The notes beneath the pieces are model-generated. The model did not search any database and was not told the origin of the DNA. It saw nothing but the letters and a program-made list of their open reading frames with translations. Position numbers and translations under genes: made by a program. DNA of 64,000 nt from Escherichia coli (GTDB lineage: Bacteria > Pseudomonadota > Gammaproteobacteria > Enterobacterales > Enterobacteriaceae), in NCBI RefSeq assembly GCF_041886205.1, contig NZ_CP169031.1, one strand, 5' to 3'. The stretch's first letter is position 1. Each line of letters opens with the position of its first letter. This document shows, piece after piece, positions 9,034 to 59,725 of this stretch.

Positions 9034-9057
9034 AAAGCTCCTGCGGGAGCTTTTTTT
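9034..9057 (+). terminator. Rho-independent terminator
   Basis: Hairpin aaagctcc-tgcg-ggagcttt followed by a T-run. Confidence 0.55.
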
Positions 9058-9185
9058 ATAACTATTTTATATAAACATGCATCGATAACATTGTCTGGAG
9101 TTTTATGTTAGATTATTAATGTTCTAATAAACTACAATTATTGAGGTAGATGTTTGTGCCTGTACTGTTAAAGGGGGACTCTAAA

Positions 9186-9782
9186 ATGGCTGTGATTCCA
9201 ATGTCGTACTCCCCGGGTACTGTCGCTCGTCGATTTTCGATCCTGGACGGAGTTACCATCCAGGGTGTGCTTTACCAGGTTATATGGGATTCCAAAACCC
9301 CATTTGCAGCTGTAATAGAGGCTGCGCCTTCTGTTATCGATGGTGATATGCGCCATAAGGTTGTCGCTACTCTTGAACTTCAACGTCGCCCGCAGCTTGA
9401 AGGCGTACTGGTAAGGAAGTTCTGGGAGGATAGCGATGTTGCCCAGATTGAAGGTATCGTGGTTGATGGAACCGTCCGTGATGTCGGTTTAGCTACTTTT
9501 GTTTACGAAACCGTAGCCTCAAAAGCTGGTGTTGTTTTGCTTAGTGATAATGAGCAATACGAAGGTGGAAAAGCTCTTTGGCAACACATCGCCCGTCGCT
9601 CTTCCGAGCTAAAAGTGTTTATCCTCGACACCGATGCCGCTCAGTATTACCCGTTTGACGGCGAACGTGTTTGCTATGACGGGGTAAGTATTCCTGAATC
9701 TGAGATATGGAGTGAACACCCAGATCGAAGTAAGCATGGGGTTGTTCTTGTCGCTGAATCCATAACTGGAAAGGCGGCATAG
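9186..9782 (+). CDS. Hypothetical protein
   Basis: ORF track 9150..9782; the preferred start at 9186 (MAVIPMS...) has an aaggggga RBS. No recognisable motif. Confidence 0.4.
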   Translation: MAVIPMSYSPGTVARRFSILDGVTIQGVLYQVIWDSKTPFAAVIEAAPSVIDGDMRHKVVATLELQRRPQLEGVLVRKFWEDSDVAQIEGIVVDGTVRDVGLATFVYETVASKAGVVLLSDNEQYEGGKALWQHIARRSSELKVFILDTDAAQYYPFDGERVCYDGVSIPESEIWSEHPDRSKHGVVLVAESITGKAA

Positions 9783-10070
9783 CAGTAAAATTCCTTGCTC
9801 CTTAAAAGGGGAGAGGGTTAATCTAGATATGCTAAGCATGGATATGGCCTCAGATTAATGTTAAGCGTCTTGCAGGACGCGTAATGTTATCTGGGGCTTT
9901 CTTCTGTTATTTGTTTGAGTGCTAGGCAGCAAAGAGAGCTAGCATTCATCAGGCAAATCTATCAATAAATAGCGTTAGTTTTTGTTGTGTGTATGTTTCT
10001 TTATTGTTATTGTGTTGTTTGTTTTTTGGACAACGCAATTCCTATAATCTATAGAATAAAGGAAGTATAT

Positions 10071-10358
10071 ATGGCTGATGTACGCATTACTTGCATTACC
10101 CTCTCCGGCTCGCAATCAATCCATGAGCATATTACTCATGTGGGAAGTCCTCAATTTAATACTAGCAATGGGAAATGGACTGTTGAGCAGGTAATTAATG
10201 CTATTGATAATAATCTCCATACATTCTATGTAACAGATAATGCAGGTAATCGTGTAGACGTTGGGGTTGTTAATCCTGGTAATGGTGGAAGGCAGTTTAT
10301 TAGAACGTATGCAGACAATCGATGGAATAATAATTTACTATCGCTACCAGTCTGTTAA
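10071..10358 (+). CDS. Small DUF3892-like protein
   Basis: 95 aa from MADVRITCI..., with an aaggaag RBS 5 nt upstream. The pattern ITHV...W...FYVTD...V.VV...G..FIRT..D...NNLLSLPVC matches my recollection of DUF3892 proteins. AT-rich leader. Confidence 0.4.
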   Translation: MADVRITCITLSGSQSIHEHITHVGSPQFNTSNGKWTVEQVINAIDNNLHTFYVTDNAGNRVDVGVVNPGNGGRQFIRTYADNRWNNNLLSLPVC

Positions 10359-10365
10359 TGTAATT

Positions 10366-10404
10366 TTATAAAAAAGGCTGCAACCTCTGTTGCAGCCTTT
10401 TTTT
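10366..10404. terminator. Bidirectional rho-independent terminator
   Basis: A-run, then ggctgcaac-ctct-gttgcagcc, then T-run, between the convergent DUF3892-like and ParA-like genes. Confidence 0.6.
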
Positions 10405-10428
10405 AGCCATTATGAGTGAGATAAGCCA

Positions 10429-11439
10429 CTATAAACTCTGAACAAGACGTTCGATTGCTGCACCATATCTTTCTAATGGTTCATTATTGATTTGTGGCTC
10501 AGTATCATGGATCTGATATCTGCCTGGTTTTATATCAAATAGAGGTCTTCCTAGATGGGAAGATACTATAGCTACGGAATGGTTATCTGGCACAGTAAAC
10601 GTTTTTAAATTTCCGCCTTGGAACGCTGTTGGTTTATTCGTCCGCAGATTTTCAGCTCTATCCCTGATTTCGTCGAACATTGCCGAAAACGCTTTACTTG
10701 CTCGTTTGTCATACTCTGTCGAACGATTAAAAACTAGAGAATGAATGACAGGAACCGCTAGACCAAACTGTTGACACCGATCGTAAAAGTTAACAGAACG
10801 ATAATCGTTTTGTACTCCAACGCCATAAACCAACTGGCTTAGGTTATCCACTGCTCGAGCCGAAGAACCATCACTTGAGCAAGGTATTATAATTGCATTT
10901 GCTGCTATCAGTGATAGTTCGGTATAGGCAGAGAAACTGGGGTTGCAATCAATAAAGCAAATGGTTTCTTCGATACCTTGTTGTTGTGCACATGCAACAA
11001 GCAAATCTCGTAGCCACAGGTGGATGCTTTTCCATGAGTCAACTGGTAAGTTTACGCTGCTTAACTGATTGATTACTTGCGCCTGAACTTCCAGGCTTGG
11101 GTCGCCTGCAATCAAAAATACATTGTCAGGGACATGTCCGTTAATTTCAGAGACATGAATTAAGAAACTTGTTTCTGAACCGGTAAGCATGTGGGGGCTG
11201 CGAGTTCTTCTGTCAAAGTACCCACCGACAGTTTTTCGTTGTTGAATTAAGCTCGCGAGGTTAGCAGCACCAGTACCGTTACCGCCGAGCAATATTTCAG
11301 ATAAGTTAGCCTGCGGGCACATATCTGCAAAAATAATACGCTTTTCTGGATTTTGCCTTGCGTATTCACAGGCCATAGCGAAAGATAAGTAGGTCTTTCC
11401 TACGCCACCTTTATTATTCCAAATAGCATACGATTTCAT
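10429..11439 (-). CDS. Orphan ParA/MinD-family P-loop ATPase with ~90-aa C-terminal extension
   Basis: Deviant Walker A (NNKGGVGKTY) near the N-terminus; likely start MKSYAIW at 11439 (track ORF extends to 11484). No partner ParB-like gene; separate from parAB at 1255-3428. Confidence 0.6.
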   Translation of the reverse strand: MKSYAIWNNKGGVGKTYLSFAMACEYARQNPEKRIIFADMCPQANLSEILLGGNGTGAANLASLIQQRKTVGGYFDRRTRSPHMLTGSETSFLIHVSEINGHVPDNVFLIAGDPSLEVQAQVINQLSSVNLPVDSWKSIHLWLRDLLVACAQQQGIEETICFIDCNPSFSAYTELSLIAANAIIIPCSSDGSSARAVDNLSQLVYGVGVQNDYRSVNFYDRCQQFGLAVPVIHSLVFNRSTEYDKRASKAFSAMFDEIRDRAENLRTNKPTAFQGGNLKTFTVPDNHSVAIVSSHLGRPLFDIKPGRYQIHDTEPQINNEPLERYGAAIERLVQSL

Positions 11440-11747
11440 GGTATCCCCGGCGTTATCTGCTGTTTGTGTGCCAGCATAAGTCATTATGCATCTCCATTAC
11501 TATCCATGAATTAAGTCAAAAAATATGTAAAAGTAGCAATGTATCACTCTTTTACTCATTATAAACGTTACAAGTTGTGATGGTTAGCTGTGTTTTTATC
11601 AGTACAAGTTTTGATCTGGCTTTGGGTTTTTATATATGGATATGTCTCAACGATGCCCTGCAAAAAGTGATCGCTAACTGTAAAAATCAGATTGCATCTC
11701 CGACCTCAAACTGAAAATGCCAGGTGACTCCAGATTAGAGCAATCTA

Positions 11748-15164: not shown

Positions 15165-15181
15165 AAATTTATTAGAGCATT
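15165..15181. promoter_or_regulatory. C1 operator-like site (aaatttattagagcatt)
   Basis: Near-consensus operator at the start of the ImmI operon. Confidence 0.6.
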
Positions 15182-15277
15182 GCTTGTTTAATAAATGCAC
15201 AATTGGATCTAATAACCTCTTTTTTTTAAAGGCGAAAATATGTACCCTAAATGAGTTATAAGGCAGGTGAGGTTATA

Positions 15278-15769
15278 ATGAGAAAACTATTACTACCGTT
15301 ATTATTTATGGCTGGGACTGTTAATGCAGCATCAAGCGTGAAGGAGATTTGTACCGATTATACGAAATACCTTGGGCACGTTTACGGCTTTGCTGTCAGT
15401 CAAGACGAATCCATGCGCAAGAAGTTACTGTCAGATATGAAACGTCTTAAACTTTCTGAAGCGATGGTGCAGCAAGAACTATATAAAGTCGCAACCAACG
15501 AAAATGCTAAATATCAATATTCTCGCCTATTAAATCCCGACGCAAACGAGATCAATCGAAGCACTTTCGATTATATGGTAAAGGCATGCGAAACCGCTCC
15601 TGATTTTGCTATCCCTAGCTGGGGTGTGCTGGTGGCGAGCAATGCCGTTAATAAAGAAGATGTTGGAAGAAATGGCATTGACTCAATAAGAAATGCCCCA
15701 GGAATGCGCCATCAAAACGTACAGGGTACGCTTGAAGAACGAGCCAGGGGGCCGGGTGTAGCCCCATAA
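15278..15769 (+). CDS. Secreted hypothetical protein (Sec signal peptide)
   Basis: Start MRKLLLPLLFMAGTVNA with an AxA cleavage motif; 2 Cys in the mature part; the C-terminus shares a GMR..VQGTLEERARG motif with Sit. AT-rich gene. Confidence 0.55.
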   Translation: MRKLLLPLLFMAGTVNAASSVKEICTDYTKYLGHVYGFAVSQDESMRKKLLSDMKRLKLSEAMVQQELYKVATNENAKYQYSRLLNPDANEINRSTFDYMVKACETAPDFAIPSWGVLVASNAVNKEDVGRNGIDSIRNAPGMRHQNVQGTLEERARGPGVAP

Positions 15770-15857
15770 TTTTATAAATAATATTAAATTCTCTGGGCAT
15801 AGTGGATCTAACAATATGGACTATGCCTATAATATCTAAAAACAAAAGGATAAAAAT

Positions 15858-16364
15858 ATGAAATTGTATAAGTCATTGTATAGCTTTTTATTAATGTCCT
15901 CTTTTCTGCCATTATCAGCAATGGCAGGTTCTACCGTTTGGACGGTAGGAGGTGAGCAAGGGTGGAGAGAAATCTCTGCAACCAATGACGATGGTTACAC
16001 AATTAACTTTTCTTGTGATGCTGGAGCAAGGGAAGGTTCAGAAGATCATATCGCTGGAAGAAATTTGTATGTAAGCGGAGGAAAAGAGAATGCCGATTTT
16101 TCTACACGCGACACAATATCACGTAAAGCAGATGTAATTACTTTAATTGTTGGCCCGGATAGTTTTAATATTGGCACGCAAAACACTGCTCCTAATCGTA
16201 GGGAATGGTATTCATTTTGGAAGGCAGTGTCATCTACAAATGAAAAAAACATAGATGTATATATCGGTTCGAGTCGAATCACATCATTCACTCTGGATGG
16301 TATTTCCAGTATTTATACAGAAGCTAAAAATGACGGGTGTTTAAAACAAGATGACGGTGAATAA
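15858..16364 (+). CDS. Secreted hypothetical protein (Sec signal peptide)
   Basis: N-terminus MKLYKSLYSFLLMSSFLPLSAMA; 168 aa; AT-rich; overlaps the next gene by 14 nt. Confidence 0.55.
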   Translation: MKLYKSLYSFLLMSSFLPLSAMAGSTVWTVGGEQGWREISATNDDGYTINFSCDAGAREGSEDHIAGRNLYVSGGKENADFSTRDTISRKADVITLIVGPDSFNIGTQNTAPNRREWYSFWKAVSSTNEKNIDVYIGSSRITSFTLDGISSIYTEAKNDGCLKQDDGE

Positions 16365-17424
16365 AGTGAAGGATATTAAACACATTTCGCTTAACTCTAA
16401 TAATAAAGCTGAAGGCACTGCCTTTTATGATTATTTAAATGAAATTAAAGGAGTGAGGCATAAAAAGATAAGTGGTTTATTAAATTCAGAATATATTTAC
16501 AAGAGTTTAGTTAAACAGTTTGGAACAGTTAAAAAACAAGAATTAATTAATGATTGTTTTCGAAAAGAACTTGAGTCTTTACCAAAAGTTACGAGAATTG
16601 CACACCAGTTTCGTGAACAAATGGTATTTTTACAGAAACAGTATCAGGCGGCTTTTCCCAGTGATGCAAATGAGCATATTCAAATAATTAAAAATCAAGC
16701 TGAAATGGCTATGCCGTTACGAAAACACTCAGAAGCCATTAATAAGATAGCTGGCTTAAATAATATGGAGGAGGTATTTAAAGAATTACACTCTAATATA
16801 AATTACAAAATTAAGATAAGCAAAGATATTAAAGAAATAATAAAGCAGTATAATAAAACAAGAAGTGTATTATTAGAGCAAGTAGTAGAGCTTGGGCTTG
16901 TTACTATCGCGCAGGCTTATGCTAATGATTCTATAAAATCAGCGCATACCGAAAGTGAGCATCAAAACAAAGGATTTAATAAATCTAGTTCGACGTTTTT
17001 TGATTCATTTAAGGCGCTTCCTTCTCCTATTCAGATCTTCCTTCTGTGGATTTTTTATCAAGTGGTGCTTGGCGCTATAACTGATTATGCAAAAGAAAAG
17101 ACATTATCGCAAATTTACAAGATGGAATCATATCTTCTATCTCTAAATGAGGATAAGCCAATATCTAAGCAAAAGCTAACACAAGAAAATAAAGATATTC
17201 AGTGGGAGGATCTTAATAATTTTAGAGCTATAACAGGTGATAACGTAAGGTTGCATGTCGGCCCTTCTTTAAATAGTGAAGTGATTGAATGCATTGGCAA
17301 AAACACAATTGTTGCTATTTTAGATAAGAAAGATCGTCAATGGCTTTACGTGCAGGTTAAATCAGGGGATGAGTTTATTACTGGTTGGATTACACGAACA
17401 TACACAAAGCCTCTTAAGGCTTGA
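16351..17424 (+). CDS. Membrane protein with C-terminal SH3b-like domain
   Basis: 357 aa; predicted single TM helix (IQIFLLWIFYQVVLGAI); C-terminal RLHVGPSLNSEVI...GWITRTY resembles bacterial SH3b. Lys/Asn-rich, AT-rich codon usage. Confidence 0.55.
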   Translation: MTVNKVKDIKHISLNSNNKAEGTAFYDYLNEIKGVRHKKISGLLNSEYIYKSLVKQFGTVKKQELINDCFRKELESLPKVTRIAHQFREQMVFLQKQYQAAFPSDANEHIQIIKNQAEMAMPLRKHSEAINKIAGLNNMEEVFKELHSNINYKIKISKDIKEIIKQYNKTRSVLLEQVVELGLVTIAQAYANDSIKSAHTESEHQNKGFNKSSSTFFDSFKALPSPIQIFLLWIFYQVVLGAITDYAKEKTLSQIYKMESYLLSLNEDKPISKQKLTQENKDIQWEDLNNFRAITGDNVRLHVGPSLNSEVIECIGKNTIVAILDKKDRQWLYVQVKSGDEFITGWITRTYTKPLKA

Positions 17425-17554
17425 ATTTTATCTCCGCATCTTCGGATTGGGTGTTGATGACGATGTGCTACTTGAAGCACTTGAGTTGTTTTAACGTAGT
17501 ATCTGAAATGTGTAGACTGACCGGTAACAAATGACAACTCGTAGAATCGGTTAA

Positions 17555-29530: not shown

Positions 29531-30064
29531 TCATTCAGGTTGTTCGGGAAATGTTACTGGCAGGCTGGAGGTGTCTGTAGATTCGACTTTCTGCGCATAG
29601 AGCATCCACTCAGTTAATTTTTGTTTATTCTCGTCGGAAATGATGCCCAGCCGTAGCTGTGAGTCCCATAGCTGGGTTTTATCCCTGACAAGTTGCAACA
29701 GGCTTTGTTTTTCATTCTCTGCCTGCTGCCTTTGTTCCTCCTCGGTATAAGTTCGCTTTATCACTACGCCATCTTTGAACATCCATTTACCCGAAATATC
29801 AGCCCGGCGATTTGCTGTAATATCAGGAACCTCAACGACGCTTGCGCCTTCTGGATTAATTGCTGAAACATCCTTTTCAATACAAATAATAACGTCGTTG
29901 TGGTCATAGACCATTTTCAACGTATCAGGCTGAAAGTTCTTTTGTTCCTCATACCAGTTTTTCCCATCCTCTGTATAAAGCCATTTGATGTTAAATTGTT
30001 TCGTTAGCTGGTATTGCTCTTTTGTTTTAGGGTTGCCAGCAGTAATGTTTTTTAAGTGCATCAT
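29531..30064 (-). CDS. U': Alternative tail fibre assembly protein U'
   Basis: 177 aa, paralogue of U in inverted orientation. Confidence 0.7.
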   Translation of the reverse strand: MMHLKNITAGNPKTKEQYQLTKQFNIKWLYTEDGKNWYEEQKNFQPDTLKMVYDHNDVIICIEKDVSAINPEGASVVEVPDITANRRADISGKWMFKDGVVIKRTYTEEEQRQQAENEKQSLLQLVRDKTQLWDSQLRLGIISDENKQKLTEWMLYAQKVESTDTSSLPVTFPEQPE

Positions 30065-30066
30065 CG

Positions 30067-31590
30067 TTAAATACTCCCCGCGTTATACCACGTCCCATTA
30101 ATGCAATACTGAATTGGCCTTGCCTGAGTTGTATCAATTAATTCATCACGGTTTCCGTTAACTGAACCTGTAACGACATAACCTGACCTGTCAGACCAGC
30201 CGGGACCATTCCATGTCTGAACAGATGACAGACCGCCCAGGCGAATACCTGTAATAAACCTTGAGTTACATTCTGCCTGCGTATATGCACCAACATCCCC
30301 CGCAGAGGGTTTGCGGGTTGTGGTGTAAAACTCTGACCAGTTAGCTTCAAAGCCATAACCATCACGCGCTGAACGATAAAAGATACCGCCGTTCTTATAA
30401 TTCACGCGGAACTGTACAGCAGGGCAACTCCCCGCATTCATATTGAAGTGGAGGATTAATGTCGATGCGCCACTGATATCTGCATCATAAACGCCGCTAT
30501 TCCAGTTCCAGCCAACAGCTTTATCATTTGCAACCCTGCTTCCTGTTTGCCCTAAAGCAAATGCAGGCTGCTGGTTTTTCGTGTTGTAGTCTCTTCGCCA
30601 GCCAGGAGCATAAGCATCACCATGATTAATATAAGTGAATTGAGCGTTAGTAATTCCGCCACCGCTGGACGTGCTCGGCGTAGTAACGCGTATGGTCATT
30701 GCGCCGCGAGTGCCAATAACTTCCACCACAGCACCTGCAAGACAAATATTTCCGCAACCTGTATCTGTAATGACCTTATTATTTGCATAAGCCCATGAGC
30801 CTTTGCACATCCAGTAAGGATGGTTAAATGCTCCCTGACTCTCCAGCCACGAAATAAATTGCGCGGTTGTCCAGACCTGACTATCGCCACCAATATTCAG
30901 CCATGCGCTATATGCGCGGCAGGCACCAATATTTTTGGTGAAGGTATCTTTTCCCGGAATATCTGCGCCGTTCTGGTTTTTCTGTAATGCTCCTGCGGCT
31001 AATTCTACAGTTTGCTCAAGATTTAAATCTGCCGCCGTTAGCTCAATATTTTTAGAACCGTCAAACGAGACACCGTTGATAGTACACGCCGTCTGCAATT
31101 TGGTCGCTGTAGCCGCATTACCAGAGGTGTCCTGATTCCCTTTGGTATTAACGCCGGGAACGGAATCTTTTGACGTATAGATCTGTGCCCATTCGGACCA
31201 TGCCGCAGCAGTGCTATCTCTTTTGGATCGAATGAAAGCTGGTGCATGAGCGCCATTTGTGCCACTCCAGCCAATGAGCAACTCGCCTTCACCAGTGGAT
31301 GCAGCTCCCTTCAGGTGAAGTACATTCCCGTAAGTCGTCGGATAACCATTGTTGTATGCCTCATACATCTGCAATCCAGTAGCAGCACCTAGCGTTGTAC
31401 CGGTAAGCGCAGTAACGCGTCCTCTAGACGTAATTGTTGGTATCGAAATGTTCGTAGAACCATCGAATCTGACGCCATTAATGTTTATGGCTGTTTTTAA
31501 TTTCGTCGCGGTGTCGGCGTTCCCTGTCAGCGCCCCGGTGATCCCGCCGTTAAAAGTCTGGCGCGCACTCCATGTGTTAGCCGTGCTCAA
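30067..31590 (-). CDS. Sv': Alternative tail fibre variable part Sv'
   Basis: 507 aa; N-terminus (STANTWSARQ.FNGGITGALTGNADTATKLKTA) matches the Sv entry region; the frame stays open through cixR, so it would fuse to Sc after inversion. Confidence 0.7.
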   Translation of the reverse strand: MSTANTWSARQTFNGGITGALTGNADTATKLKTAININGVRFDGSTNISIPTITSRGRVTALTGTTLGAATGLQMYEAYNNGYPTTYGNVLHLKGAASTGEGELLIGWSGTNGAHAPAFIRSKRDSTAAAWSEWAQIYTSKDSVPGVNTKGNQDTSGNAATATKLQTACTINGVSFDGSKNIELTAADLNLEQTVELAAGALQKNQNGADIPGKDTFTKNIGACRAYSAWLNIGGDSQVWTTAQFISWLESQGAFNHPYWMCKGSWAYANNKVITDTGCGNICLAGAVVEVIGTRGAMTIRVTTPSTSSGGGITNAQFTYINHGDAYAPGWRRDYNTKNQQPAFALGQTGSRVANDKAVGWNWNSGVYDADISGASTLILHFNMNAGSCPAVQFRVNYKNGGIFYRSARDGYGFEANWSEFYTTTRKPSAGDVGAYTQAECNSRFITGIRLGGLSSVQTWNGPGWSDRSGYVVTGSVNGNRDELIDTTQARPIQYCINGTWYNAGSI

Positions 31591-31620
31591 CAGGGGGATC
31601 TTTTCACCACTGGTACCGAG

Positions 31621-31646
31621 TTCTCTTAAACCAAGGTTTAGGATTG
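31621..31646. promoter_or_regulatory. cixR recombination site for Cin
   Basis: ttctcttaaaccaaggtttaggattg, inverted partner of cixL; overlaps the cin 3' end. Confidence 0.6.
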
Positions 31647-32198
31647 AAATGACGACGCCGGAAACTTCTTATAAAGCGTGGAAACAGCCACATCATAGAT
31701 GATTGCAACCTGCTTACGGGGGATGCCATTCTCCAGCAATCGCCGCATTTGCTGCCATGTTTCTTCTTGGTATTTAGGCCGACGTCCACCTATACGACCT
31801 TCTGCGCGAGCTGCATCAAGTCCAGCGCGTGTACGTTCAACGATAAGCTCACGTTCCATTTCTGCCAGCGCTCCCATTACGTGAAAGAAAAAGCGCCCCA
31901 TTGGTGTACTGGTGTCGATAGAGTCAGTGAGACTCCGGAAATTAATTCCTCTGTCACGCAGCTCTTCCACCAGCACAACCAAGTGACGCATGCTGCGCCC
32001 AAGACGATCTAACTTCCATACGACCAGGGTGTCACCTCTGGAAAGCATACGCAAAACCTTTTTTAGCCCAGGGCGTTCAGTCTGTTTGCCGCTCGCCTTA
32101 TCCTCAAAAATTAGCTCACATCCTGCGCTTTCAAGGGCATTTCGTTGCAAAGCAGTGTTTTGTTCATTTGTTGATACGCGTACATAGCCGATCAGCAT
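31638..32198 (-). CDS. cin: Cin DNA invertase (serine recombinase)
   Basis: 186 aa from MLIGYVRVSTNEQ (serine recombinase active-site motif); the track ORF extends further upstream but has no RBS there. Confidence 0.85.
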   Translation of the reverse strand: MLIGYVRVSTNEQNTALQRNALESAGCELIFEDKASGKQTERPGLKKVLRMLSRGDTLVVWKLDRLGRSMRHLVVLVEELRDRGINFRSLTDSIDTSTPMGRFFFHVMGALAEMERELIVERTRAGLDAARAEGRIGGRRPKYQEETWQQMRRLLENGIPRKQVAIIYDVAVSTLYKKFPASSFQS

Positions 32199-32261
32199 GA
32201 TTTTTACTCTAACCGGCTCATTTAAACCGTCTGGTCTGTTTCCTCCGGCTCTACAAAAATA

Positions 32262-32939
32262 ATGTCCATCATTTTTAATGGACACTATCGTATGAAACAC
32301 CGGACCTGGATCACTGAAGCTTTACGTCTTCACTTTGAAGAACATTTACCCCGGGTTGTGGCCGGGCGTCGCCTGGGTGTACCAAAATCAACAGTTTGTA
32401 GTATGTTCGTGCGCTTTCGGAGAGCTGGCCTTTCGTGGCCTTTGCCCGCAGGCATGTCGGAGCAGGAACTTGATGCCTGCCTTTACGGACAATTTTCCAC
32501 GGTACCAGTCGTACGTCCTGAAAGCACCGTTATATCCGAAGCCCCCGTGGTAAAAAAACGTCCCCGGCGGCCCAACTTCCCTTATGAGTTTAAAATCGCC
32601 TTAGTGGAGCAGTCACTGCAGCCCGGAGCCTGTGTGGCGCAGATCGCCCGGGAAAACGGAATCAACGATAACCTGCTCTTCAACTGGCGCCATCAATACC
32701 GGAAAGGTGGCCTGCTGCCTTCCGGAAAAAATATGCCGGCACTGCTTCCCGTGACGTTAACGCCGGAGCCGGATAATAAAATCCCGGCCCCCGCACAGGA
32801 ACCAGAGCAGATAAATACACCGTCCGACAGTCTGTGTTGTGAGCTGGTTCTGCCGGCCGGAACTCTCAGGCTTAAAGGTAAACTGACGCCGGCGTTATTA
32901 CAGACACTTATCCGCGAAATAAAAGGGAGCAGCCACTGA
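32262..32939 (+). CDS. IS66-family accessory protein (orf1/TnpA-like) with N-terminal HTH extension
   Basis: C-terminal part (RRPNFPYEFKIALVEQSLQPGACVAQIARENGINDNLLFNWRHQYRKG) is IS66 orf1-like; the ~95 aa N-terminal part carries an HTH-like segment (GRRLGVPKSTV). Confidence 0.55.
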   Translation: MSIIFNGHYRMKHRTWITEALRLHFEEHLPRVVAGRRLGVPKSTVCSMFVRFRRAGLSWPLPAGMSEQELDACLYGQFSTVPVVRPESTVISEAPVVKKRPRRPNFPYEFKIALVEQSLQPGACVAQIARENGINDNLLFNWRHQYRKGGLLPSGKNMPALLPVTLTPEPDNKIPAPAQEPEQINTPSDSLCCELVLPAGTLRLKGKLTPALLQTLIREIKGSSH

Positions 32940-33286
32940 TGATATCTCTCCCTGCAGGTTCGCGTATCTGGCTGGTTGCAGGTATCACCGATATGCGAAA
33001 TGGCTTTAACGGCCTGGCATCAAAAGTTCAGAACGTCCTGAAGGATGACCCGTTCTCCGGACACCTGTTCATCTTCCGCGGACGCCGGGGTGACCAGATA
33101 AAAGTGTTGTGGGCTGACAGTGACGGACTGTGCCTCTTCACCAAACGCCTGGAGCGGGGCCGCTTCGTCTGGCCAGTCACCCGTGACGGCAAGGTGCACC
33201 TTACTCCGGCTCAGTTATCCATGCTTCTTGAAGGTATCAACTGGAAGCACCCGAAACGAACGGAACGCGCTGGAATCCGCATATAA
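32939..33286 (+). CDS. tnpB: IS66-family TnpB (orf2)
   Basis: 115 aa; start overlaps the orf1 stop (atga), typical of IS66. Confidence 0.75.
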   Translation: MISLPAGSRIWLVAGITDMRNGFNGLASKVQNVLKDDPFSGHLFIFRGRRGDQIKVLWADSDGLCLFTKRLERGRFVWPVTRDGKVHLTPAQLSMLLEGINWKHPKRTERAGIRI

Positions 33287-33305
33287 CCCGTTGTAAAGTG
33301 AGGAT

Positions 33306-34877
33306 ATGGACACCTCACTTGCTCATGAGAACGCCCGCCTGCGGGCACTGTTGCAGACGCAACAGGACACCATCCGCCAGATGGCTGAATACAACCGCCT
33401 GCTCTCACAGCGGGTGGCGGCTTATGCTTCCGAAATCAACCGGCTGAAGGCGCTGGTTGCGAAACTGCAACGTATGCAGTTCGGTAAAAGCTCAGAAAAA
33501 CTTCGTGCAAAAACCGAACGGCAGATACAGGAAGCACAGGAGCGAATCAGCGCACTTCAGGAAGAAATGGCGGAAACGCTGGGTGAGCAATATGACCCGG
33601 TACTGCCATCCGCCCTGCGCCAGTCTTCAGCCCGTAAACCGTTACCGGCCTCACTTCCCCGTGAAACCCGGGTTATCCGGCCGGAAGAGGAATGCTGTCC
33701 TGCCTGTGGTGGTGAACTCAGTTCTCTGGGATGTGATGTGTCAGAGCAACTGGAGCTTATCAGCAGCGCCTTTAAGGTTATCGAAACACAACGTCCGAAA
33801 CAGGCCTGTTGCCGGTGCGACCATATCGTGCAGGCACCAGTACCTTCAAAACCCATTGCACGCAGTTATGCCGGAGCGGGGCTTCTGGCCCATGTTGTCA
33901 CCGGGAAATATGCAGACCATCTGCCGTTATACCGCCAGTCAGAAATATACCGTCGTCAGGGAGTGGAGCTGAGCCGTGCCACACTGGGGCGCTGGACAGG
34001 TGCTGTTGCTGAACTGCTGGAGCCGCTGTATGACGTCCTGCGCCAGTATGTGCTGATGCCCGGTAAAGTCCATGCTGATGATATCCCCGTCCCGGTCCAG
34101 GAGCCGGGCAGCGGTAAAACCCGGACAGCCCGGCTGTGGGTCTACGTCCGTGATGACCGTAACGCCGGTTCACAGATGCCCCCGGCGGTCTGGTTCGCGT
34201 ACAGTCCGGACCGGAAAGGTATCCATCCACAAAATCACCTGGCCGGTTACAGCGGTGTGCTTCAGGCCGATGCTTACGGTGGTTACCGGGCGTTATACGA
34301 ATCCGGCAGAATAACGGAAGCCGCGTGTATGGCTCATGCCCGGAGAAAAATCCACGATGTGCATGCAAGAGCGTCCACCTACATCACCACGGAAGCCCTG
34401 CAGCGTATCGGTGAACTGTATGCCATCGAGGCAGAGGTCCGGGGCTGTTCAGCAGAACAGCGTCTGGCGGCAAGAAAAGCCAGAGCCGCGCCACTGATGC
34501 AGTCACTGTATGACTGGATACAGCAACAGATGAAAACACTGTCGCGTCACTCAGATACGGCAAAAGCGTTCGCATACCTGCTGAAACAGTGGGATGCACT
34601 GAACGTGTACTGCAGTAATGGCTGGGTGGAAATCGACAACAACATCGCAGAGAACGCCTTACGGGGAGTGGCCGTAGGCCGGAAAAACTGGATGTTCGCG
34701 GGTTCCGACAGCGGTGGTGAACATGCGGCGGTGTTGTACTCGCTGATCGGCACATGCCGTCTGAACAATGTGGAGCCAGAAAAGTGGCTGCGTTACGTCA
34801 TTGAACATATCCAGGACTGGCCGGCAAACCGGGTACGCGATCTGTTGCCCTGGAAAGTTGATCTGAGCTCTCAGTAA
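33306..34877 (+). CDS. IS66-family transposase (orf3)
   Basis: 523 aa with coiled-coil N-terminus and Cys-rich zinc-binding motif (CPACGG...CCRCDH), typical of IS66 transposases. Confidence 0.8.
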
Positions 34878-35025
34878 ATATCAATACGGTTCTGACGAGT
34901 CGCTTACTTTTACTCTAATGCGTTGTTCTTATGAGTCTGCGAATTTTAAAGAACAAAGCGTTATGCACAGAAATAACAATCTGAATAGGTTCCTGCTTGA
35001 TTTTTGTTAGATCCGGGAGGAGCTT

Positions 35026-35310
35026 ATGCAGATTTTGATTTTTTTAATGTCCATTATTAGTGGAACCTATTTATTTCTTACTGGAGTTAGGCGTGGAGCT
35101 TATAAGCCATGTTTTTTACATTGGCTTGAAGCATGGCTGCTTGCCATAAAAGGTGGTTTTGTTGGTTTTTGTCTTGCAGAAGTTCAGTGGGGAAACTCAT
35201 TTTTGGATGTGGTTGCTTTTTTGATATGTAGTTGGAATAGCCATTTTGTATTAAGAATAACCAAAATATGGGTTTTTCACTTGATTTACGAATGTATTGG
35301 CAAATTATGA
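35026..35310 (+). CDS. Small hydrophobic membrane protein (possible holin-like)
   Basis: 94 aa with 2-3 predicted TM segments; strong RBS (gggaggag); just upstream of lydA. Confidence 0.35.
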   Translation: MQILIFLMSIISGTYLFLTGVRRGAYKPCFLHWLEAWLLAIKGGFVGFCLAEVQWGNSFLDVVAFLICSWNSHFVLRITKIWVFHLIYECIGKL

Positions 35311-35370
35311 ACAACCAGATGAGAAGTTACTTTGCATACCATTACCTCCTGACAACGTAGGAGGGAACTT

Positions 35371-35700
35371 GTGCTTGACACACAGGAATTAGCTCCAGTT
35401 GCTATTGCGCTCCTGCTTTCAGTAATTGGTGGGATAGGCACGTTCCTGATGGATGTCCGAGACGGTCGCCAGTCTGGCAATTTGTTGGGATTGGTTACGG
35501 AGATCTTTGTTGCAGTGACAGCTGGCGCGGTGGCGTACCTATTGGGGCAACACGAGGGCTGGGAGTTATCAATTACGTACTTAATGGTAACGATAGCCAG
35601 CAATAACGGTCATGAGGTGATTTCAGGGATGAAACGAGTGAATATCGATAGCATTCTGAATGTTCTTACAAGTTTGGTGAAAAAGGGAGGCGGGAAATGA
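35371..35700 (+). CDS. lydA: Holin LydA
   Basis: 109 aa with two TM segments and a charged C-terminus; first gene of the lyd-dar operon. Confidence 0.7.
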   Translation: MLDTQELAPVAIALLLSVIGGIGTFLMDVRDGRQSGNLLGLVTEIFVAVTAGAVAYLLGQHEGWELSITYLMVTIASNNGHEVISGMKRVNIDSILNVLTSLVKKGGGK

Positions 35701-42012: not shown

Positions 42013-42313
42013 AATCGCAGCGCCATTAGGCGGAGATGCCATTATCGAATTTGATGATAATGAAGAAGTTTCCGGGCGTTTAAGCATTATCTCCGGTGAC
42101 ATTACCGAGGACATGATCGCTGAAGCCATAGCTGGGGCAAATCCCAATAGCTATATGGGATTCGTTAACACCCTTGATGCTCCCGCAAGTGATGTTCTCC
42201 GAACGCTGCATCTTTACGCTGGCTGGTTTGTTGATTGGCCAGCAGTAGATGGTGGCGATGAGGACGACGACGACGATGATTTTGGTGATCATGTAGACCA
42301 GATCGTATATTGA
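42002..42313 (+). CDS. Small highly acidic protein, last gene of the dar operon
   Basis: 103 aa; C-terminus DGGDEDDDDDDFGDHVDQIVY; followed by a strong terminator. Confidence 0.45.
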   Translation: MQIKIAAPLGGDAIIEFDDNEEVSGRLSIISGDITEDMIAEAIAGANPNSYMGFVNTLDAPASDVLRTLHLYAGWFVDWPAVDGGDEDDDDDDFGDHVDQIVY

Positions 42314-42316
42314 AGA

Positions 42317-42344
42317 AATCCCGCCAATCGGCGGGATTTTTTTT
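42317..42344. terminator. Bidirectional rho-independent terminator
   Basis: aatcccgcc-aatc-ggcgggatt followed by a T-run; ends the dar operon and the convergent ssb operon. Confidence 0.65.
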
Positions 42345-43125
42345 AATCGCTTTCCACTTCTTCCGTGGTGTTTTCTTGCAGTTCTGTTAATGCAGCACGA
42401 CATAGGTTCCGGGCATTGGCTATAGCCACACTTTTGACTTCATCCGTCATCGTGCAGGTAATGTACTGATCGAGTTCTTCAGCGCGGATGATGCTTTTGC
42501 CAATCAGAAACTGTATTTGCCAGAGCAGATCGGCATCCATAATCAGAATTTCTGCCGGGCCTTCAGGGCCAGCCGGGAAGGAAACATAAGACTGTTTGCC
42601 CAGGCCGACAACTCGACAACTTGCTTCAAGAATTGCGCGCTTGAGGTCTGACTTTATAACGGAAACAGGTTGATTTTCACCAGTGATTACGCCGTTGACA
42701 TGGAAAGGCATGTAGCTTGAAATACGCTCCACTTTCCACACGCCAGCAAGCGATCCTTCATGCAGCACAATGGGGGTAACCGCGAGTTTCATCTCACCAT
42801 ATAACTGCTGGCAGATAGCTGGATTGCTGAATACATCTAAAGGCTCACATTCAAACAGCGGCGCAATCTGCATGAGGTCCATCATGGTCATCCCTGGGGT
42901 ACGAGCAGTAATGAATTTGCGCATACCAGTATCCATTGCGCTCCAGATTGCTACACCATGCTTTTTGCTCACTTCTTCAGTAAAGCCAAGGTGGCACATG
43001 ATGGTTTTTTCGATAGCCAGATCAGAGATAGAAACCTTTTCGCCAGGTACTCCATCATTATTGATGGTCACTTCGACACTCTGGCCATTACGCAGGCGGT
43101 ATTGAATTGCTTTAGTATTTTCCAC
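42343..43125 (-). CDS. Hypothetical protein, third gene of the ssb operon
   Basis: 260-aa ORF, 6 bp downstream of the preceding gene. Confidence 0.45.
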   Translation of the reverse strand: MENTKAIQYRLRNGQSVEVTINNDGVPGEKVSISDLAIEKTIMCHLGFTEEVSKKHGVAIWSAMDTGMRKFITARTPGMTMMDLMQIAPLFECEPLDVFSNPAICQQLYGEMKLAVTPIVLHEGSLAGVWKVERISSYMPFHVNGVITGENQPVSVIKSDLKRAILEASCRVVGLGKQSYVSFPAGPEGPAEILIMDADLLWQIQFLIGKSIIRAEELDQYITCTMTDEVKSVAIANARNLCRAALTELQENTTEEVESD

Positions 43126-43131
43126 GTTAAA

Positions 43132-43809
43132 TCACTCCACTACAAACCAGTCACATGCCAGTAAGTCGCCTACAGAAGGAACCCACGGAACAACTACACC
43201 TTGTGCATTTTTTAAGGCGAAATAAGCACCATACGGAACGAGGTCGCCGGGGAAATATCCCTTAATGGCTTCCATTCGTGCCGGGTACTGTCCTTCAGGA
43301 ACCAGCCAGCAGAATTGGTTTTCGCCGTTCCACCCGCGTCGAGCAACTTTCTTGCCATCCTTCAGCCACATCAGCGCGTCAGAAAAGTCGGCTGCTTCAA
43401 GGTCGATTTCTTCTTGTAGAGTAGCGATACCGCCAGCAGAAATAGTTACGTCCCTGGCTGTAATGAATGTCACCCCATTGTGACCTTCAATGCTGAGCGA
43501 TACCCCATTTTCGAAGAAGTCGTTAGTCCGACTAAAGCCTTCTTCAAATGTTTTTTCTGGTGAATAGGACAGAGATCCGTCCTCATAAGCGACCAGATAT
43601 CCGCCAATTTCTGGTCGGTGTTTTTGCAAAAATATTTTATCAACATGGACTTTTACCCCTTCTGGCTCAACGACTTCGATGTTGCAAAAAAGGACCACAT
43701 CCATTAGGGCGATAATTTCGATATCTTTGATTTTTGAGGCGCGAACTGTTTTATGGCTTTTGTATTTTGGAAGTGCCGTCAAAAGCTCTTTCGTTGTCAT
43801 GTTATTCAT
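43132..43809 (-). CDS. Protein with C-terminal DUF2829/Tad2-like domain
   Basis: Likely start MNNMTTKELL at 43809 (gaggaaag RBS). C-terminal ~80 aa: FSDALMWLKDGKKVARRGWNGENQFCWLVPEG...VVPWVPSVGDLLACDWFVVE, matching the AL..LK.GKKV.R.GWNG...DW..V signature as I recall it. Confidence 0.5.
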   Translation of the reverse strand: MNNMTTKELLTALPKYKSHKTVRASKIKDIEIIALMDVVLFCNIEVVEPEGVKVHVDKIFLQKHRPEIGGYLVAYEDGSLSYSPEKTFEEGFSRTNDFFENGVSLSIEGHNGVTFITARDVTISAGGIATLQEEIDLEAADFSDALMWLKDGKKVARRGWNGENQFCWLVPEGQYPARMEAIKGYFPGDLVPYGAYFALKNAQGVVVPWVPSVGDLLACDWFVVE

Positions 43810-44006
43810 AGTCTTTCCTCTGCTTAAAACCTGATGTATTGCGCCTTCAGGTGGGTCAGGAATGTTTTCCCACCAGCGAACGCAATATCTCGGGGTGTTC
43901 TTTTCGTGAAAAGCGTGTGCCATTGCCAACTTTGGCGTTTGTTTGCGAGTTCGTGCTTTTGTCGGCGTCTGGACCACCGCTTTTCTTTCAGTCGTTTTTT
44001 ACACAT

Positions 44007-44495
44007 TCAAAACGGAATATCGTCGTCAAAGTCCATTGGAGGTTCGTTATTGGCGTTGCTCTGAGGTTTACCGCCACCACTGTATTGCTGGTGGTTTTGA
44101 GGTTGGTTTGATTGCCCCCAGCCATTTGAGGACTGTGAATCGTCACGGCGAGCGCCGATCATTTGCATGGTGCCGCCCTGGCTGACGATAATTTCCGTCG
44201 TGTAACGTTCTACACCGGCGTCATCAGTCCACTTACGGGTTTTAAGTTTCCCTTCGATGTAGACCTGAGAACCTTTTCGTAAATACTCACTCGCAATTTC
44301 AGCAAGTTTTCCGAACAAAACGACTTTATGCCATTCTGTTTGCTCTTTCTGTTGGCCCGTTTGCTTATCGCGCCATGATTCATTCGTTGCGATGCTGAGT
44401 CTTCCGACTGCGCCGCCATTTGGTATATACCTGATCTCCGGGTCTTGCCCCAGGGTACCAATCAGGATGACTTTGTTTACACCGCGTTGTGCCAC
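44007..44495 (-). CDS. ssb: Single-stranded DNA-binding protein
   Basis: 162 aa; OB-fold N-terminus, Gly/Gln-rich linker and acidic tail ending DFDDDIPF. Confidence 0.9.
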
Positions 44496-55552: not shown

Positions 55553-55797
55553 AAAAGCGATACTACACAGTAAAGCATGGGACGCTACGAGCATTACAAG
55601 AGTTTGCTGACAAGCATAACGTTGAGGTGCGCAGGGAAGGGGGAAGTAAAGCTCTGCGCATGTACCGTCCGGACGGGAAATGGCGTACAGTCGTCGATTT
55701 CAAAACAAACAGTGTTCCCCAGGGCGTCCGCGACCGGGCATTCGAAGAATGGGAGCAGATCATCATAGATAATGCATTGCTTCTCAATGCTGATTGA
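55549..55797 (+). CDS. lxc: Lxc/Bof-like C1 corepressor
   Basis: 82-aa ORF following darB-ulx; assigned by position and size. Confidence 0.5.
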   Translation: MKKRYYTVKHGTLRALQEFADKHNVEVRREGGSKALRMYRPDGKWRTVVDFKTNSVPQGVRDRAFEEWEQIIIDNALLLNAD

Positions 55798-55879
55798 GTT
55801 TTGTTGGCCCGGTTTGCACCGGGCGTTTCACAAACAATCAACTGGTTTGTAGTTCCTGCGGCGAGATGAATTATTAATA

Positions 55880-56488
55880 TTATCGTGGTGCCGATGATGC
55901 GATAGCCTGTATGATGTTATCAATATCGTTATCGTTCAGCATGAATATAGGTACACCATTAGAGTTTGCATTTTTTTCAGTGCTCATCAAACAAAGCCCC
56001 TCATACATGCCGCGAGTTTTTTTGAAATTGGCGACTGATGGAGTGGTGTAATTTCCTTTAAAGTGCATTCCGGCTGATTCATAAAAAGGAACCAAATCAG
56101 ACTGGCAAATCAAAGCGACCTCATTTGGAAATGCAAGTATTTCTGCCAGTATATTACTTCCAAGTCCATTACCACGATATTGCTCATATACATATATTTT
56201 ATGACAGTACAACGGAAAATTTCCCGATGGATGTCCGAAGATTAAGGCGTATCCGAACAAGTTTTCTTCATTAGTAAAGCCCATAATGCGCAAATGACCG
56301 GCTCGGTAACACTCTTCAAAAACGTTAATTATGTAGCTTCTCGCTGCTTTCAGCTCCTCTTCTGTCGGGAACATCATCAACCCCATAAGCGATGGAGTAT
56401 AGGCCAGATCCTGAAGAATCCCATTAGCTTCATTTTCGAAAATTAGCGGTAAGTGCGGTACAATTTCATTTGCCGAGGTATTAGACAT
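55880..56488 (-). CDS. GNAT-family N-acetyltransferase
   Basis: 202 aa; motif A (YVYEQYRGNGLGSNILAEIL) and motif B-like (VPFYESAGMHFKG). AT-rich gene with its own AT-rich upstream region. Confidence 0.65.
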   Translation of the reverse strand: MSNTSANEIVPHLPLIFENEANGILQDLAYTPSLMGLMMFPTEEELKAARSYIINVFEECYRAGHLRIMGFTNEENLFGYALIFGHPSGNFPLYCHKIYVYEQYRGNGLGSNILAEILAFPNEVALICQSDLVPFYESAGMHFKGNYTTPSVANFKKTRGMYEGLCLMSTEKNANSNGVPIFMLNDNDIDNIIQAIASSAPR

Positions 56489-56496
56489 AGTATGGT

Positions 56497-56520
56497 GAGT
56501 CCTTTGTTTTCAAAGGACTC
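56497..56520 (-). promoter_or_regulatory. Perfect 10-bp-stem hairpin in the GNAT leader, overlapping the likely Shine-Dalgarno
   Basis: gagtcctttg-tttt-caaaggactc; on the mRNA it ends 8 nt before the ATG and contains the only SD-like aagga. Confidence 0.45.
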
Positions 56521-56686
56521 ATGTTATCAGTGATAATCGTTTGTTGTAATAGTGTTGATAAAATAATTTTCTATTATGTAAGCAAGCTCATTTTTATGAC
56601 GGGTAATGCAAAAAAAATAGAATCAAAAAACTAAAAAATAATAATTCATGGGGTTTTACACCATCAAAAGTCCCCACTATAAATTA

Positions 56687-57328
56687 TTAGAAATAATTAT
56701 GCTTGCCTGTTAATACCCCTTTCGGCACTTTTTTTTGTTCCAGTGTCTGGGTACCCAGAATTATGTTAATAAGTGGACTTAGTAACGATGGTTCCTGGCG
56801 GGCTTCAACTTCTCCAGCCATTGCCCTGATGTAGTCGGCGCTGGCAACGTTGTTGTATTCCGTCGCAAAGCAACATAGTAATGTCAGAACATGCTCTGTC
56901 GTTATTTCGCTCCAGTTGATGTTGAAAAATTCATCGCCTTTTTTATCGTGTTCGGAATCGAAGATGCTTTGGTGGAGGATGTATTTGCCGGATTCCTTGC
57001 GCGGTAACTTGATCGCTTTCTGGCGTTCCAGCTCCTTGTAAATCTGCATTGCTTCAATCAGTACCGGCCTGCCGTTCATGAAGGGATCGCGCAACCTTAC
57101 ACGCTGGCCAACTCGACCAGTAATAAAGCTGTTTTCCTCTTCCACCAGCACGATAAAACCCTTTTCCTCTTTTTCTCGCAATTCGCGCAGCAGCTGGAGT
57201 TCCATGTCGCGGCGGCGTTCAGGGTAGCTGGTCCGCTCAGCCATTATCAGCTCGTTGTTGATCCATGCAGCAGTCATTGACGCCGGTTTGCCGACGCTCA
57301 TCGAAACAACGCATATTTTCTTATCCAT
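56687..57328 (-). CDS. Hypothetical protein
   Basis: Track ORF of 222 aa (to 57355); likely start MDKKICVV at 57328. Preceded on the minus strand by a late-promoter-like element (57469-57477). Confidence 0.45.
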   Translation of the reverse strand: MDKKICVVSMSVGKPASMTAAWINNELIMAERTSYPERRRDMELQLLRELREKEEKGFIVLVEEENSFITGRVGQRVRLRDPFMNGRPVLIEAMQIYKELERQKAIKLPRKESGKYILHQSIFDSEHDKKGDEFFNINWSEITTEHVLTLLCCFATEYNNVASADYIRAMAGEVEARQEPSLLSPLINIILGTQTLEQKKVPKGVLTGKHNYF

Positions 57329-57516: not shown

Positions 57517-58077
57517 TTAGTGCATAATGTTTGCCATTTCATAGGCGTCAGCCAGCAACTCCATCTCTGACTTGTTCAACAAGGTGAATTCTTTCTTGCC
57601 TCCTACCACGCCATCGGCATGAACAGGGACCAGCCAGGGGTATTTTTCTCTTACTTCAGCCGGTGCTGCATGCTGGTGGTGCCATCTGCAAAGGGGCAAT
57701 TGCTTTTTGTGACAACCCGGCGCGGTACGACCGGAGATATGGTGCAGAGACACCTCTTCAGATATTACTCCATGCATGTAGCAGGCAATGCAGGGGAGAG
57801 TGCCAAGAGCATTGGCGATAGTCTGTTCCTCCTCCGTCGGTGTTCGCCCCTTCAAGCCACGAGATTTTATTTTTACCGCACTTTTCCGCGTTTTGCTGGC
57901 TGGTGGGCGCTCTTTCTGTTTAGCGATACGGCGGTCGATAGAATCCCGCATTTTCTGATATTGCGATTCTCGCCAGGCGGGGTCAGCCAACTTTTCCCGT
58001 TGCCGAGCGATCGCTCGTTCTCTGGCTGCCTTCTGCCACTCGCGGCGCTGTTCAAGTTTTTGTTCGATTGTTTTCAT
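57517..58077 (-). CDS. ref: Ref recombination enhancement function (HNH endonuclease)
   Basis: 186 aa from MKTIEQK; C-terminal HNH-like Cys/His cluster (CIACYMHG...HHISG...CHKKQ...CRWHH); C1 operator-like site upstream. Confidence 0.75.
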   Translation of the reverse strand: MKTIEQKLEQRREWQKAARERAIARQREKLADPAWRESQYQKMRDSIDRRIAKQKERPPASKTRKSAVKIKSRGLKGRTPTEEEQTIANALGTLPCIACYMHGVISEEVSLHHISGRTAPGCHKKQLPLCRWHHQHAAPAEVREKYPWLVPVHADGVVGGKKEFTLLNKSEMELLADAYEMANIMH

Positions 58078-58177
58078 ATGGCAAAAAAAAGGCGGCCTAA
58101 TGGCCGCCAATGATGTCAAGGAGTGAAGTAATGGCAACGTCTTCGTAGTTGACAAAAACTGCGGCCAAATTATAACA

Positions 58178-58192
58178 ATCAATTAGAGCAAT
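58178..58192. promoter_or_regulatory. C1 operator-like site (atcaattagagcaat)
   Basis: Operator core match about 100 bp upstream of ref. Confidence 0.5.
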
Positions 58193-58225
58193 GGTAGATA
58201 TTTTGTTTCTCGCGAATCACATTTT

Positions 58226-58328
58226 TTCACTTCAGTACCTGTGTGCTATACTCCTTCTTGATTGATTGGATGCGGAATACAAACCCGCTCTTTTGTGCAG
58301 CCTGGCTCCTTGCCAGGCTTTTTTTTAT
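58226..58328 (+). ncRNA. Candidate small RNA transcription unit
   Basis: Plus-strand extended -10 (tgctatact at 58244-58252) with a ttcact -35-like hexamer, then a plus-oriented intrinsic terminator (agcctggc-tcct-tgccaggct plus T9) at 58299-58328. No plausible plus-strand CDS. Confidence 0.3.
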
Positions 58329-58636
58329 TTCATCATGGAAGCTGTTAACGCTTTGGACCTTGCTGAACTGATTGAAAGGGCATTGTTTACCTTACCCAGG
58401 AGTTTGCCAAATTCCCCCATCACTCTAGTAAGCCCGCGCCGCGCTTCCTCCTCCGTTGCATTCATCACAAAATGTTCAGCACTCCGCATGCTTTTAACGG
58501 GGAACGCAACAGATATCGAGTCGATATCAGGCATCCTATCGCTCAACTTTACGGTGACAATGACAGATGGCGACAGAATATTAGTGCTTACAGACAGCAC
58601 TACATATTTTCCGTCGATGTTGAAATCCTTTCTCAT
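58325..58636 (-). CDS. cra: Cra-like small protein between cre and ref
   Basis: Minus-strand ORF (track 58325..58672) between cre and ref; a C1 operator-like site at 58656-58669 overlaps the track start, so an internal start (MRKDF, 58636) is preferred. Confidence 0.35.
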   Translation of the reverse strand: MRKDFNIDGKYVVLSVSTNILSPSVIVTVKLSDRMPDIDSISVAFPVKSMRSAEHFVMNATEEEARRGLTRVMGEFGKLLGKVNNALSISSARSKALTASMMK

Positions 58637-58686
58637 ATGCCACCATAAATACCAAAGAATTAGAGCAATCATTTACGCGTTAATGG

Positions 58687-59718: not shown

Positions 59719-59725
59719 TTAACAC

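Follow-up and report, generated by a model that had tools for sequence, protein, structure and literature searches.

The serine DNA invertase gene cin of a P7-type prophage plasmid is separated from its predicted promoters by a full-length copy of the insertion sequence ISCro1, the left end of which lies 11 bp upstream of the cin start codon. In the reading that we favor, and consider probable, this insertion cuts cin off from its native promoter candidates, such that its expression drops and inversion of the C segment, the DNA segment that determines the type of tail fiber produced, becomes rarer or stops altogether. The same reading holds that the IS is itself probably hard to move and that the late promoter of the neighboring lyd-dar operon is unaffected.

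The window (the whole stretch of 64,000 nucleotides analyzed here) is collinear with the record for phage P7 (AF503408), from about position 65185 of that record down to position 7569, with 96-99.8% identity and a few blocks replaced relative to P7. It encodes a C1 repressor (NF041318, 611 bits) and a Cre-like tyrosine recombinase, and these two genes, together with the collinearity with P7, identify it as a P7-type prophage plasmid. The insertion lies between cin, on the minus strand, and lydC, on the plus strand, in a divergent control region with a native length of 120 bp. The G+C content of the inserted element is 54-60%, versus 40-50% for its flanks.

The element was confirmed to be a full-length ISCro1, a member of the IS66 family (Table 1). 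As is characteristic of this family, tnpA and tnpB are located ahead of tnpC on the same strand, and the TnpC protein contains the Pfam domains DDE_Tnp_IS66, zf-IS66, LZ_Tnp_IS66 and DDE_Tnp_IS66_C (PF03050, PF13005, PF13007 and PF13817). Independent copies could be aligned over exactly the interval 32210-34907. A comparison with 10 database copies revealed only 0-2 mismatches over 2698 bp, and the name ISCro1 is based on the PGAP label “IS66-like element ISCro1 family transposase” attached to the matching copies. Of 5426 complete E. coli genomes, 3210 had matches to this element, as did 2658 PLSDB plasmids, and near-identical copies are also present in Salmonella. A reading from the sequence alone (hereafter referred to as the sequence-only reading) had assigned the element to the IS66 family; the scores of all three ORFs, which exceed the NCBIfam cut-offs, bear out this assignment, and the nucleotide identity to annotated copies refines it to ISCro1. 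The window contains a single copy, with each IS end present once, ruling out a composite transposon or a second copy. The unusual length of TnpA (225 aa) raised the suspicion of an IS21/IS66 chimera, but residues 13-206 match the NCBIfam IS66 TnpA equivalog, and TnpA is of equal length in other annotated copies.

The insertion reads as a genuine simple transposition, rather than as a rearrangement or a misassembly. The octamer TTTTACTC is present at both ends of the IS, in keeping with the simple insertion with target duplication put forward in the sequence-only reading. When the IS and one copy of the repeat were deleted in silico, the rejoined flanks matched P7 at all 281 positions spanning the junction, with 99.8% identity over a longer stretch of 1045 bp; the claim that they reconstitute an intact P7-type 5' region of cin therefore stands. 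The distance of 11 bp between the IS and the cin ATG was likewise correct, the A of the ATG being at position 32198 and the gap extending from 32199 to 32209. The uninterrupted P7-type site exists in nature: it was found in 20 PLSDB plasmids, with 99.4-99.9% identity. Near-identical relatives lacking the IS include NZ_CP030188.1 and CP057623.1. ISCro1 would thus have transposed into a T-rich octamer in the cin-lydC control region, duplicating that octamer in the process. The insertion is taken to be recent, because the IS is still 99.9-100% identical to other copies.

Table 1. Coordinates, within the window, of the inserted element, its target site and the neighboring genes and control sites.
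Feature	Coordinates	Strand	Remarks
cixR crossover site	27617..27636		inner half-site as in cixL; outer half differs
Invertible C segment, 4007 bp	27627..31633		opposite orientation to P7 record
cixL crossover site	31624..31643		identical to P7
cin, serine DNA invertase, 186 aa	31638..32198	-	protein 100% identical to P7 Cin
Recombinational enhancer, inside cin	32113-32180		identical to P7
Target-site duplication TTTTACTC, left copy	32202..32209		8 bp; contains the cin-strand RBS GAG
ISCro1	32210..34907	+	2698 bp; 99.9-100% identity to annotated ISCro1 copies
Left inverted repeat TAACCGGCTCATTTAAACCGT	32210..32230	+	aligns to the right repeat, beginning at the second base of the latter; 15/21 matches
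Palindrome with 14-bp stem, IS left end, over tnpA start codon	32258..32289		folding of a 112-nt stretch
tnpA, IS66 accessory protein, 225 aa	32262..32939	+	NF038385, 295.8 bits (cut-off 150); HTH_Tnp_1
tnpB, IS66 accessory protein, 115 aa	32939..33286	+	NF033819, 128.9 bits (cut-off 50)
tnpC, IS66 DDE transposase, 523 aa	33306..34877	+	NF033517, 478 bits (cut-off 180)
Right inverted repeat GTAAGCGACTCGTCAGAACCGT, read from the end inward	34886..34907	-	comparison of IS ends
Target-site duplication TTTTACTC, right copy	34908..34915		8 bp
Op(lydC), predicted C1 operator annotated in P7	34909..34925	+	whole copy at right junction
P1cin -10 equivalent TAAAAT (predicted promoter)	34943..34948	-	P1 annotation and comparison with P7
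lydC, putative holin	35026..35310	+	identical to P7
Late promoter LPdar (-22 box AAGTTACTT, -10 TACCAT)	35324..35342	+	identical to P7

The octamer TTTTACTC occurs only four times in the window, so the presence of two copies directly abutting the IS ends is not due to chance (~1.5e-5 for a fixed position). Perfect duplications of 8 bp, the length characteristic of IS66 elements, were also found around 15 of 18 other complete ISCro1 copies, and the collected duplications are T-rich at positions 2-4, a pattern that the target described here fits. A direct repeat of 9 bp had been proposed in the sequence-only reading. Its first eight bases hold on both sides, but the ninth is not part of the duplication: the IS starts with TAA and the native flank also continues with TAA. 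We therefore rejected repeats of 9 or 11 bp, in which the bases beyond the eighth match by coincidence.

The left terminus, one base short, was overlooked in the sequence-only reading. IS66 elements are defined as having terminal inverted repeats of 20-30 bp that start with GTAAGCG (PMC11946415), and we counted the ends of this element as such repeats, with the left end of this copy lacking the first G. Canonical ISCro1 is 2699 bp long, as are 16 of the 18 complete copies, and starts with G-TAACCGG (left end, GTAACCGG). The terminal G was present in all 48 of the other left ends considered (10/10 database copies and 38/38 IMG/VR copies), and a perfect 8-bp duplication sits outside this G in the ten database copies, whereas the corresponding base of the window, at position 32209, is a C. 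The simplest reading would be an element without its terminal G, flanked by a normal 8-bp duplication; a G-to-C change at the first base of the IS, combined with a 7-bp duplication, would be the alternative. On either reading, a conserved terminal nucleotide has been lost from the left end. A sequencing error might account for the missing G. If its absence is real, the loss of a terminal nucleotide from a DDE transposon would plausibly impair end cleavage, and this copy of ISCro1 may be poorly mobile, given that its left end lacks a base present in every other copy examined.

In the annotation of P1, cin is preceded by two predicted sigma-70 promoters, P1cin and P2cin, with -10 boxes located 39-44 bp and 96-101 bp, respectively, upstream of the ATG, and by a ribosome-binding site 9-11 bp upstream of the ATG. 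Both P7 and the window retain the P1cin -10 box, TAAAAT, but in the window it now lies beyond the IS, 2745 bp from the cin ATG. The predicted cin promoters have been displaced by 2706 bp, placing all the native candidates about 2.7 kb away, and the separation of cin from its upstream promoter region noted in the sequence-only reading was thus recovered. Among the annotated upstream signals, only the GAG of the ribosome-binding site, which falls within the duplication, remains with cin; the 14 nt immediately upstream of the ATG are unchanged, because the IS begins with TAA. No sigma-70 promoter can fit into 11 bp, which leaves cin with only two possible sources of transcription: a start within the IS, or transcripts that cross the element antisense to the tnp genes.

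We searched for both sources of transcription. A promoter scan of positions 31600-35500 at the tool threshold identified no promoter-like site. A looser consensus scan yielded matches at 7-8 of 12 positions on the minus strand of the IS left end, but the native region likewise scored only 8 of 12, indicating that consensus scans cannot separate working from non-working promoters at this locus. No convincing outward promoter was found in the IS in either standard or low-stringency scans. A search of the literature for a transcriptome paper on P1 found none. Terminators were sought as potential blocks to read-through toward cin, and to transcription continuing from tnpC into lydC. Between the displaced promoters and cin (minus strand, 34948 to 32199), no intrinsic terminator exceeding chance expectation was detected, and the terminator-like hairpins at 32783-32806 and 34887-34902 folded no better than shuffled sequence; some read-through to cin is therefore possible. 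The only hairpin to stand out was the palindrome over the tnpA start codon (minimum free energy of -35.5 kcal/mol over 112 nt, z = -4.97). On the minus strand, a short run of U residues follows this palindrome, which any transcript heading leftward would have to cross. Judging from its position and fold, the palindrome may shield the IS from read-in transcription and may stop antisense transcripts from leaving the IS toward cin.

The other components of the Cin-cix system are all in place. The window contains an invertase gene with its enhancer inside it, next to an invertible segment that lies between inverted cix sites and carries alternative C-termini for the tail fiber. The layout of cin, cixL, cixR, the enhancer and the S and U genes is that of P7. 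The orientation of the C segment, another feature overlooked in the sequence-only reading, is opposite to that in the P7 record: the segment is 99.8% identical to that of P7 over 4029 bp, but inverted relative to its flanks. Sc is joined to Sv' in the S' ORF (26179-28971), and U' (28972-29502) comes next, corresponding to the S'/U' expressed orientation; this orientation is a single assembled state and carries no information about timing or heterogeneity in the population.

The insertion spares the open reading frame of cin, together with its ribosome-binding site, the enhancer, both cix sites and the C segment, and places the native promoter candidates behind an IS transcribed in the opposite direction. 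We propose that transcription of cin would then drop, as it would depend solely on antisense read-through across the IS or on weak, fortuitous promoters at the left end of the IS. Inversion of the C segment by Cin would become rarer or stop, and the prophage would tend to remain in the S'/U' state seen here, barring the action of a host invertase in trans. The insertion most likely lowers cin transcription and, in so doing, slows or freezes the switch.

A possible but rather doubtful alternative is that the insertion is neutral for the switch, with enough cin transcribed, by read-through or by a weak promoter directed outward from the left end of the IS, for inversion to continue. The native activity of Cin is already low, and a small residual level might suffice. 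The minus strand from 34948 to 32199 contains no intrinsic terminator better than chance, but 2.7 kb of untranslated antisense RNA, made against tnp transcription, is a poor route to cin expression; Rho-dependent termination would be expected on such RNA, and the 14-bp-stem hairpin and its U residues lie 50-90 nt before the exit from the IS. Several weak promoter-like matches are present on the minus strand at 32200-32320, and one of them, CAGACG-16-TAGAGT, mimics the native CAGACT-16-TAGAGT, at an equal distance from the ATG, but all these matches are weak (7-8/12). The absence of decay in cin, the product of which is still that of P7, and the orientation of the C segment, which implies that inversion occurred at some time in the lineage, are also compatible with a functional switch. 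However, the insertion is recent, and the intact ORF and the inverted orientation may both predate it. In the one published measurement found, the expression of the gene adjacent to ISCro1 was lowered (PMC8764528).

It is also conceivable, albeit unlikely, that cin is silenced but the switch continues to be operated in trans by a Din-family invertase of the host, such as Pin of e14, Gin of Mu or Min of p15B-type plasmids. Cin, Gin, Pin and Hin are known to cross-complement one another. The intact state of cixL, cixR and the cin-internal enhancer makes the segment a competent substrate for such inversion. Any host gene of this kind would lie outside the window, within which a non-exhaustive look revealed no second invertase gene.

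On the lyd-dar side, the sequence-only reading had suggested that the insertion might disturb the late promoter of the operon. This suggestion was not borne out: LPdar is located downstream of lydC, 417 bp from the end of the IS, and is unchanged with respect to P7. The lydA gene differs from that of P7 by one base. The insertion point does lie within Op(lydC), and yet a complete copy of this operator remains, at the right junction, because of the target duplication; at the left junction, no more than the first 10 bases of the operator remain. Facing lydC, the reconstructed empty site has its best promoter-like match in TTGATA-19-CATGAT (32171-32201), just to the left of the operator. If this match were the lydC promoter, which is speculative, it would now be severed from lydC and would read into the IS. 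Taken further, this line of thought would lead to a stable rewiring, in which the IS is immobilized, the prophage is locked in the S'/U' (C-minus) state, and a candidate early promoter for lydC at the 5' end of cin (the match at 32171-32201), normally under C1 control, reads into the tnp genes without a complete operator, coupling IS expression to the phage and uncoupling lydC from C1; we consider this composite scenario improbable. The idea that the IS is an assembly artefact, arising from a misplaced repeat or a chimeric contig, can be set aside with near certainty: many E. coli genomes harbor multiple copies of ISCro1, a single genome having as many as 34 matching places, and the left junction, without its terminal G, is atypical, but the duplication is perfect at both ends, the empty site is restored base for base, and a misassembly would not produce a target duplication.

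This exact insertion is unrecorded in the six public collections searched. No record spanning both junctions was found among INPHARED phages, PLSDB plasmids or complete E. coli genomes, and a 36-nt string covering the left junction had no exact match in IMG/VR, GTDB representative genomes or JGI metagenomes. Events of this kind are, by contrast, already well known, the cin/C-segment region being a documented IS hot spot in P1-like plasmids (PMC6906374), and the finding is ordinary in this respect. IS-mediated damage to this region, referred to as “RD-3”, has been described for the P1-like plasmids pSvP1, pTZ20_1P and pJIE250-3 (Venturini et al. 2019, PMC6906374). These plasmids resemble the prophage studied here in the impact of mobile elements on the region and the expected loss of tail-fiber switching, but they have a truncated cin or a C segment that has been deleted or remodeled (PMC6906374), whereas the parts are intact here and only the link between promoter and gene is broken.

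The copy described here shares its three ORFs, right end, 8-bp duplication and T-rich target with the ISCro1 that NCBI PGAP annotates on thousands of chromosomes and plasmids of E. coli, Shigella and Salmonella, but is 2698 bp rather than 2699 bp long, the left terminal G present in 48 of 48 other copies being absent or replaced by a C. Cin-defective phages are reportedly fixed in the C(+) or C(-) state, an observation attributed to Iida et al. 1982. The phenotype predicted here is that of a cin-down mutant, and the lesion, unlike that of the cin-defective P1 and P7 phages, would be regulatory rather than in the recombinase gene. The effect of ISCro1 on a nearby gene has been described for the afaF-afaA regulatory region of E. 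coli ST131, in which its presence decreased both afaA transcript levels and promoter-lacZ activity (PMC8764528). That case shares with ours the presence of ISCro1 in a divergent regulatory region, but concerns a different operon, with an insertion 440 bp upstream of the start codon, rather than 11 bp upstream as for cin (PMC8764528).

If cin is truly silenced, the particles produced would carry only one of the two types of tail fiber, S'/U', and would have a narrower range of hosts to infect or to transduce into. Host range matters in these elements, as P1/P7-like phage-plasmids move resistance genes between enterobacteria. The insertion would also constitute a clean natural “promoter-disconnect” allele, with the parts of the switch intact, that could serve to explore the amount of Cin required for switching. 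Otherwise, it is one more case of IS traffic in a known hot spot and introduces no new principle.

A second ISCro1 insertion in the same part of a P1-like genome was observed in the IncY plasmid pRHB16-C13_3 (CP057733), where the element is found, in the same orientation, in the interval from the tail genes to lydA. This insertion arose independently and is flanked by a different duplication, CATGCAGG. It occupies a short stretch of foreign DNA present in place of the C segment, cin and lydC; the P1-type homology of this plasmid ends at the position equivalent to 27632 in the window, inside cixR.

At the cin 5' end, a TTGATA-19-CATGAT sequence (32171-32201, + strand) matches the promoter consensus at 9/12 positions in the reconstructed empty site, in which it lies directly upstream of Op(lydC), the predicted C1 operator annotated in phage P7. 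This sequence is a candidate lydC promoter; it is now cut off from lydC by the IS66-family element ISCro1 and directed into it. Upstream of the cin start codon, the frame of this serine DNA invertase gene runs on uninterrupted into the IS and reaches a GTG codon at 32300 (window 32199-32300, - strand), and a transcript initiated within the IS could in principle yield a Cin protein with a 34-residue N-terminal extension. The promoter-motif scan also identified a CAGAC in the left end of the IS whose spacing to TAGAGT/ATG equals that of the native CAGAC, but this shared placement is probably coincidental, because both promoter matches are weak.

The terminal G is missing from the left end of this copy of ISCro1 (32209-32210), where a C is found instead; all 48 of the other ISCro1 left ends examined begin with this G. 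The sequence is compatible with either a copy one base short or a G-to-C change accompanied by a 7-bp duplication. A palindrome at this end spans the tnpA start codon (32262), and folding of the 112-nt - strand stretch around it gave a z-score of -4.97. It may act as a shield against read-in transcription and as a barrier to antisense read-out. The target duplications at 15 distinct sites were T-rich at positions 2-4; position 6 was A or T and position 8 frequently C, a base bias suggestive of a target preference of ISCro1.

Comparison with the P7 record (AF503408) showed the invertible tail-fibre (C) segment, at 27616-31644, to be in the opposite orientation. Sc is joined to Sv', followed by U', and the assembled orientation, as judged from this gene order, is therefore C(-). 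U is a single 177-aa ORF (29531-30064, - strand) in the window, and is annotated as two pieces, Ua and Ub, in the P7 record. In the IncY P1-like plasmid pRHB16-C13_3 (CP057733.1), homology to the window ends at 27632, within cixR, and restarts at 35320; at plasmid positions 5957-8909, about 250 bp of other sequence replaces the C segment, cin and lydC and bears an independent ISCro1 with its own duplication, CATGCAGG. This arrangement may have arisen by Cin-mediated deletion at cixR.

In megablast searches against P7, no match was obtained for window blocks 9056-11734, 15179-17527, 21803-22412, 42311-44007, 55795-56742 and 57541-64000. The second to fifth of these blocks had no NCBIfam match; the features recognized in the first and last are listed in the table.

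Features of the window
Feature	Coordinates	Strand	Remarks
ParA-like ATPase	10429-11484		fragment match; within block 9056-11734
Sc-Sv' fusion ORF	26179-28971		930 aa
U'	28972-29502		directly after Sc-Sv' fusion ORF
Extended cin-frame ORF	31638-32300	-	220 aa
CAGACG-16-TAGAGT	32206-32233	-	IS-derived CAGAC; weak promoter match, 7/12
Palindrome	32258-32289		14-bp stem; IS left end
CAGACT-16-TAGAGT	34912-34939	-	native version; weak promoter match, 7/12
Cre-like recombinase	58687-59718		within block 57541-64000
C1 repressor	60872-61723		within block 57541-64000
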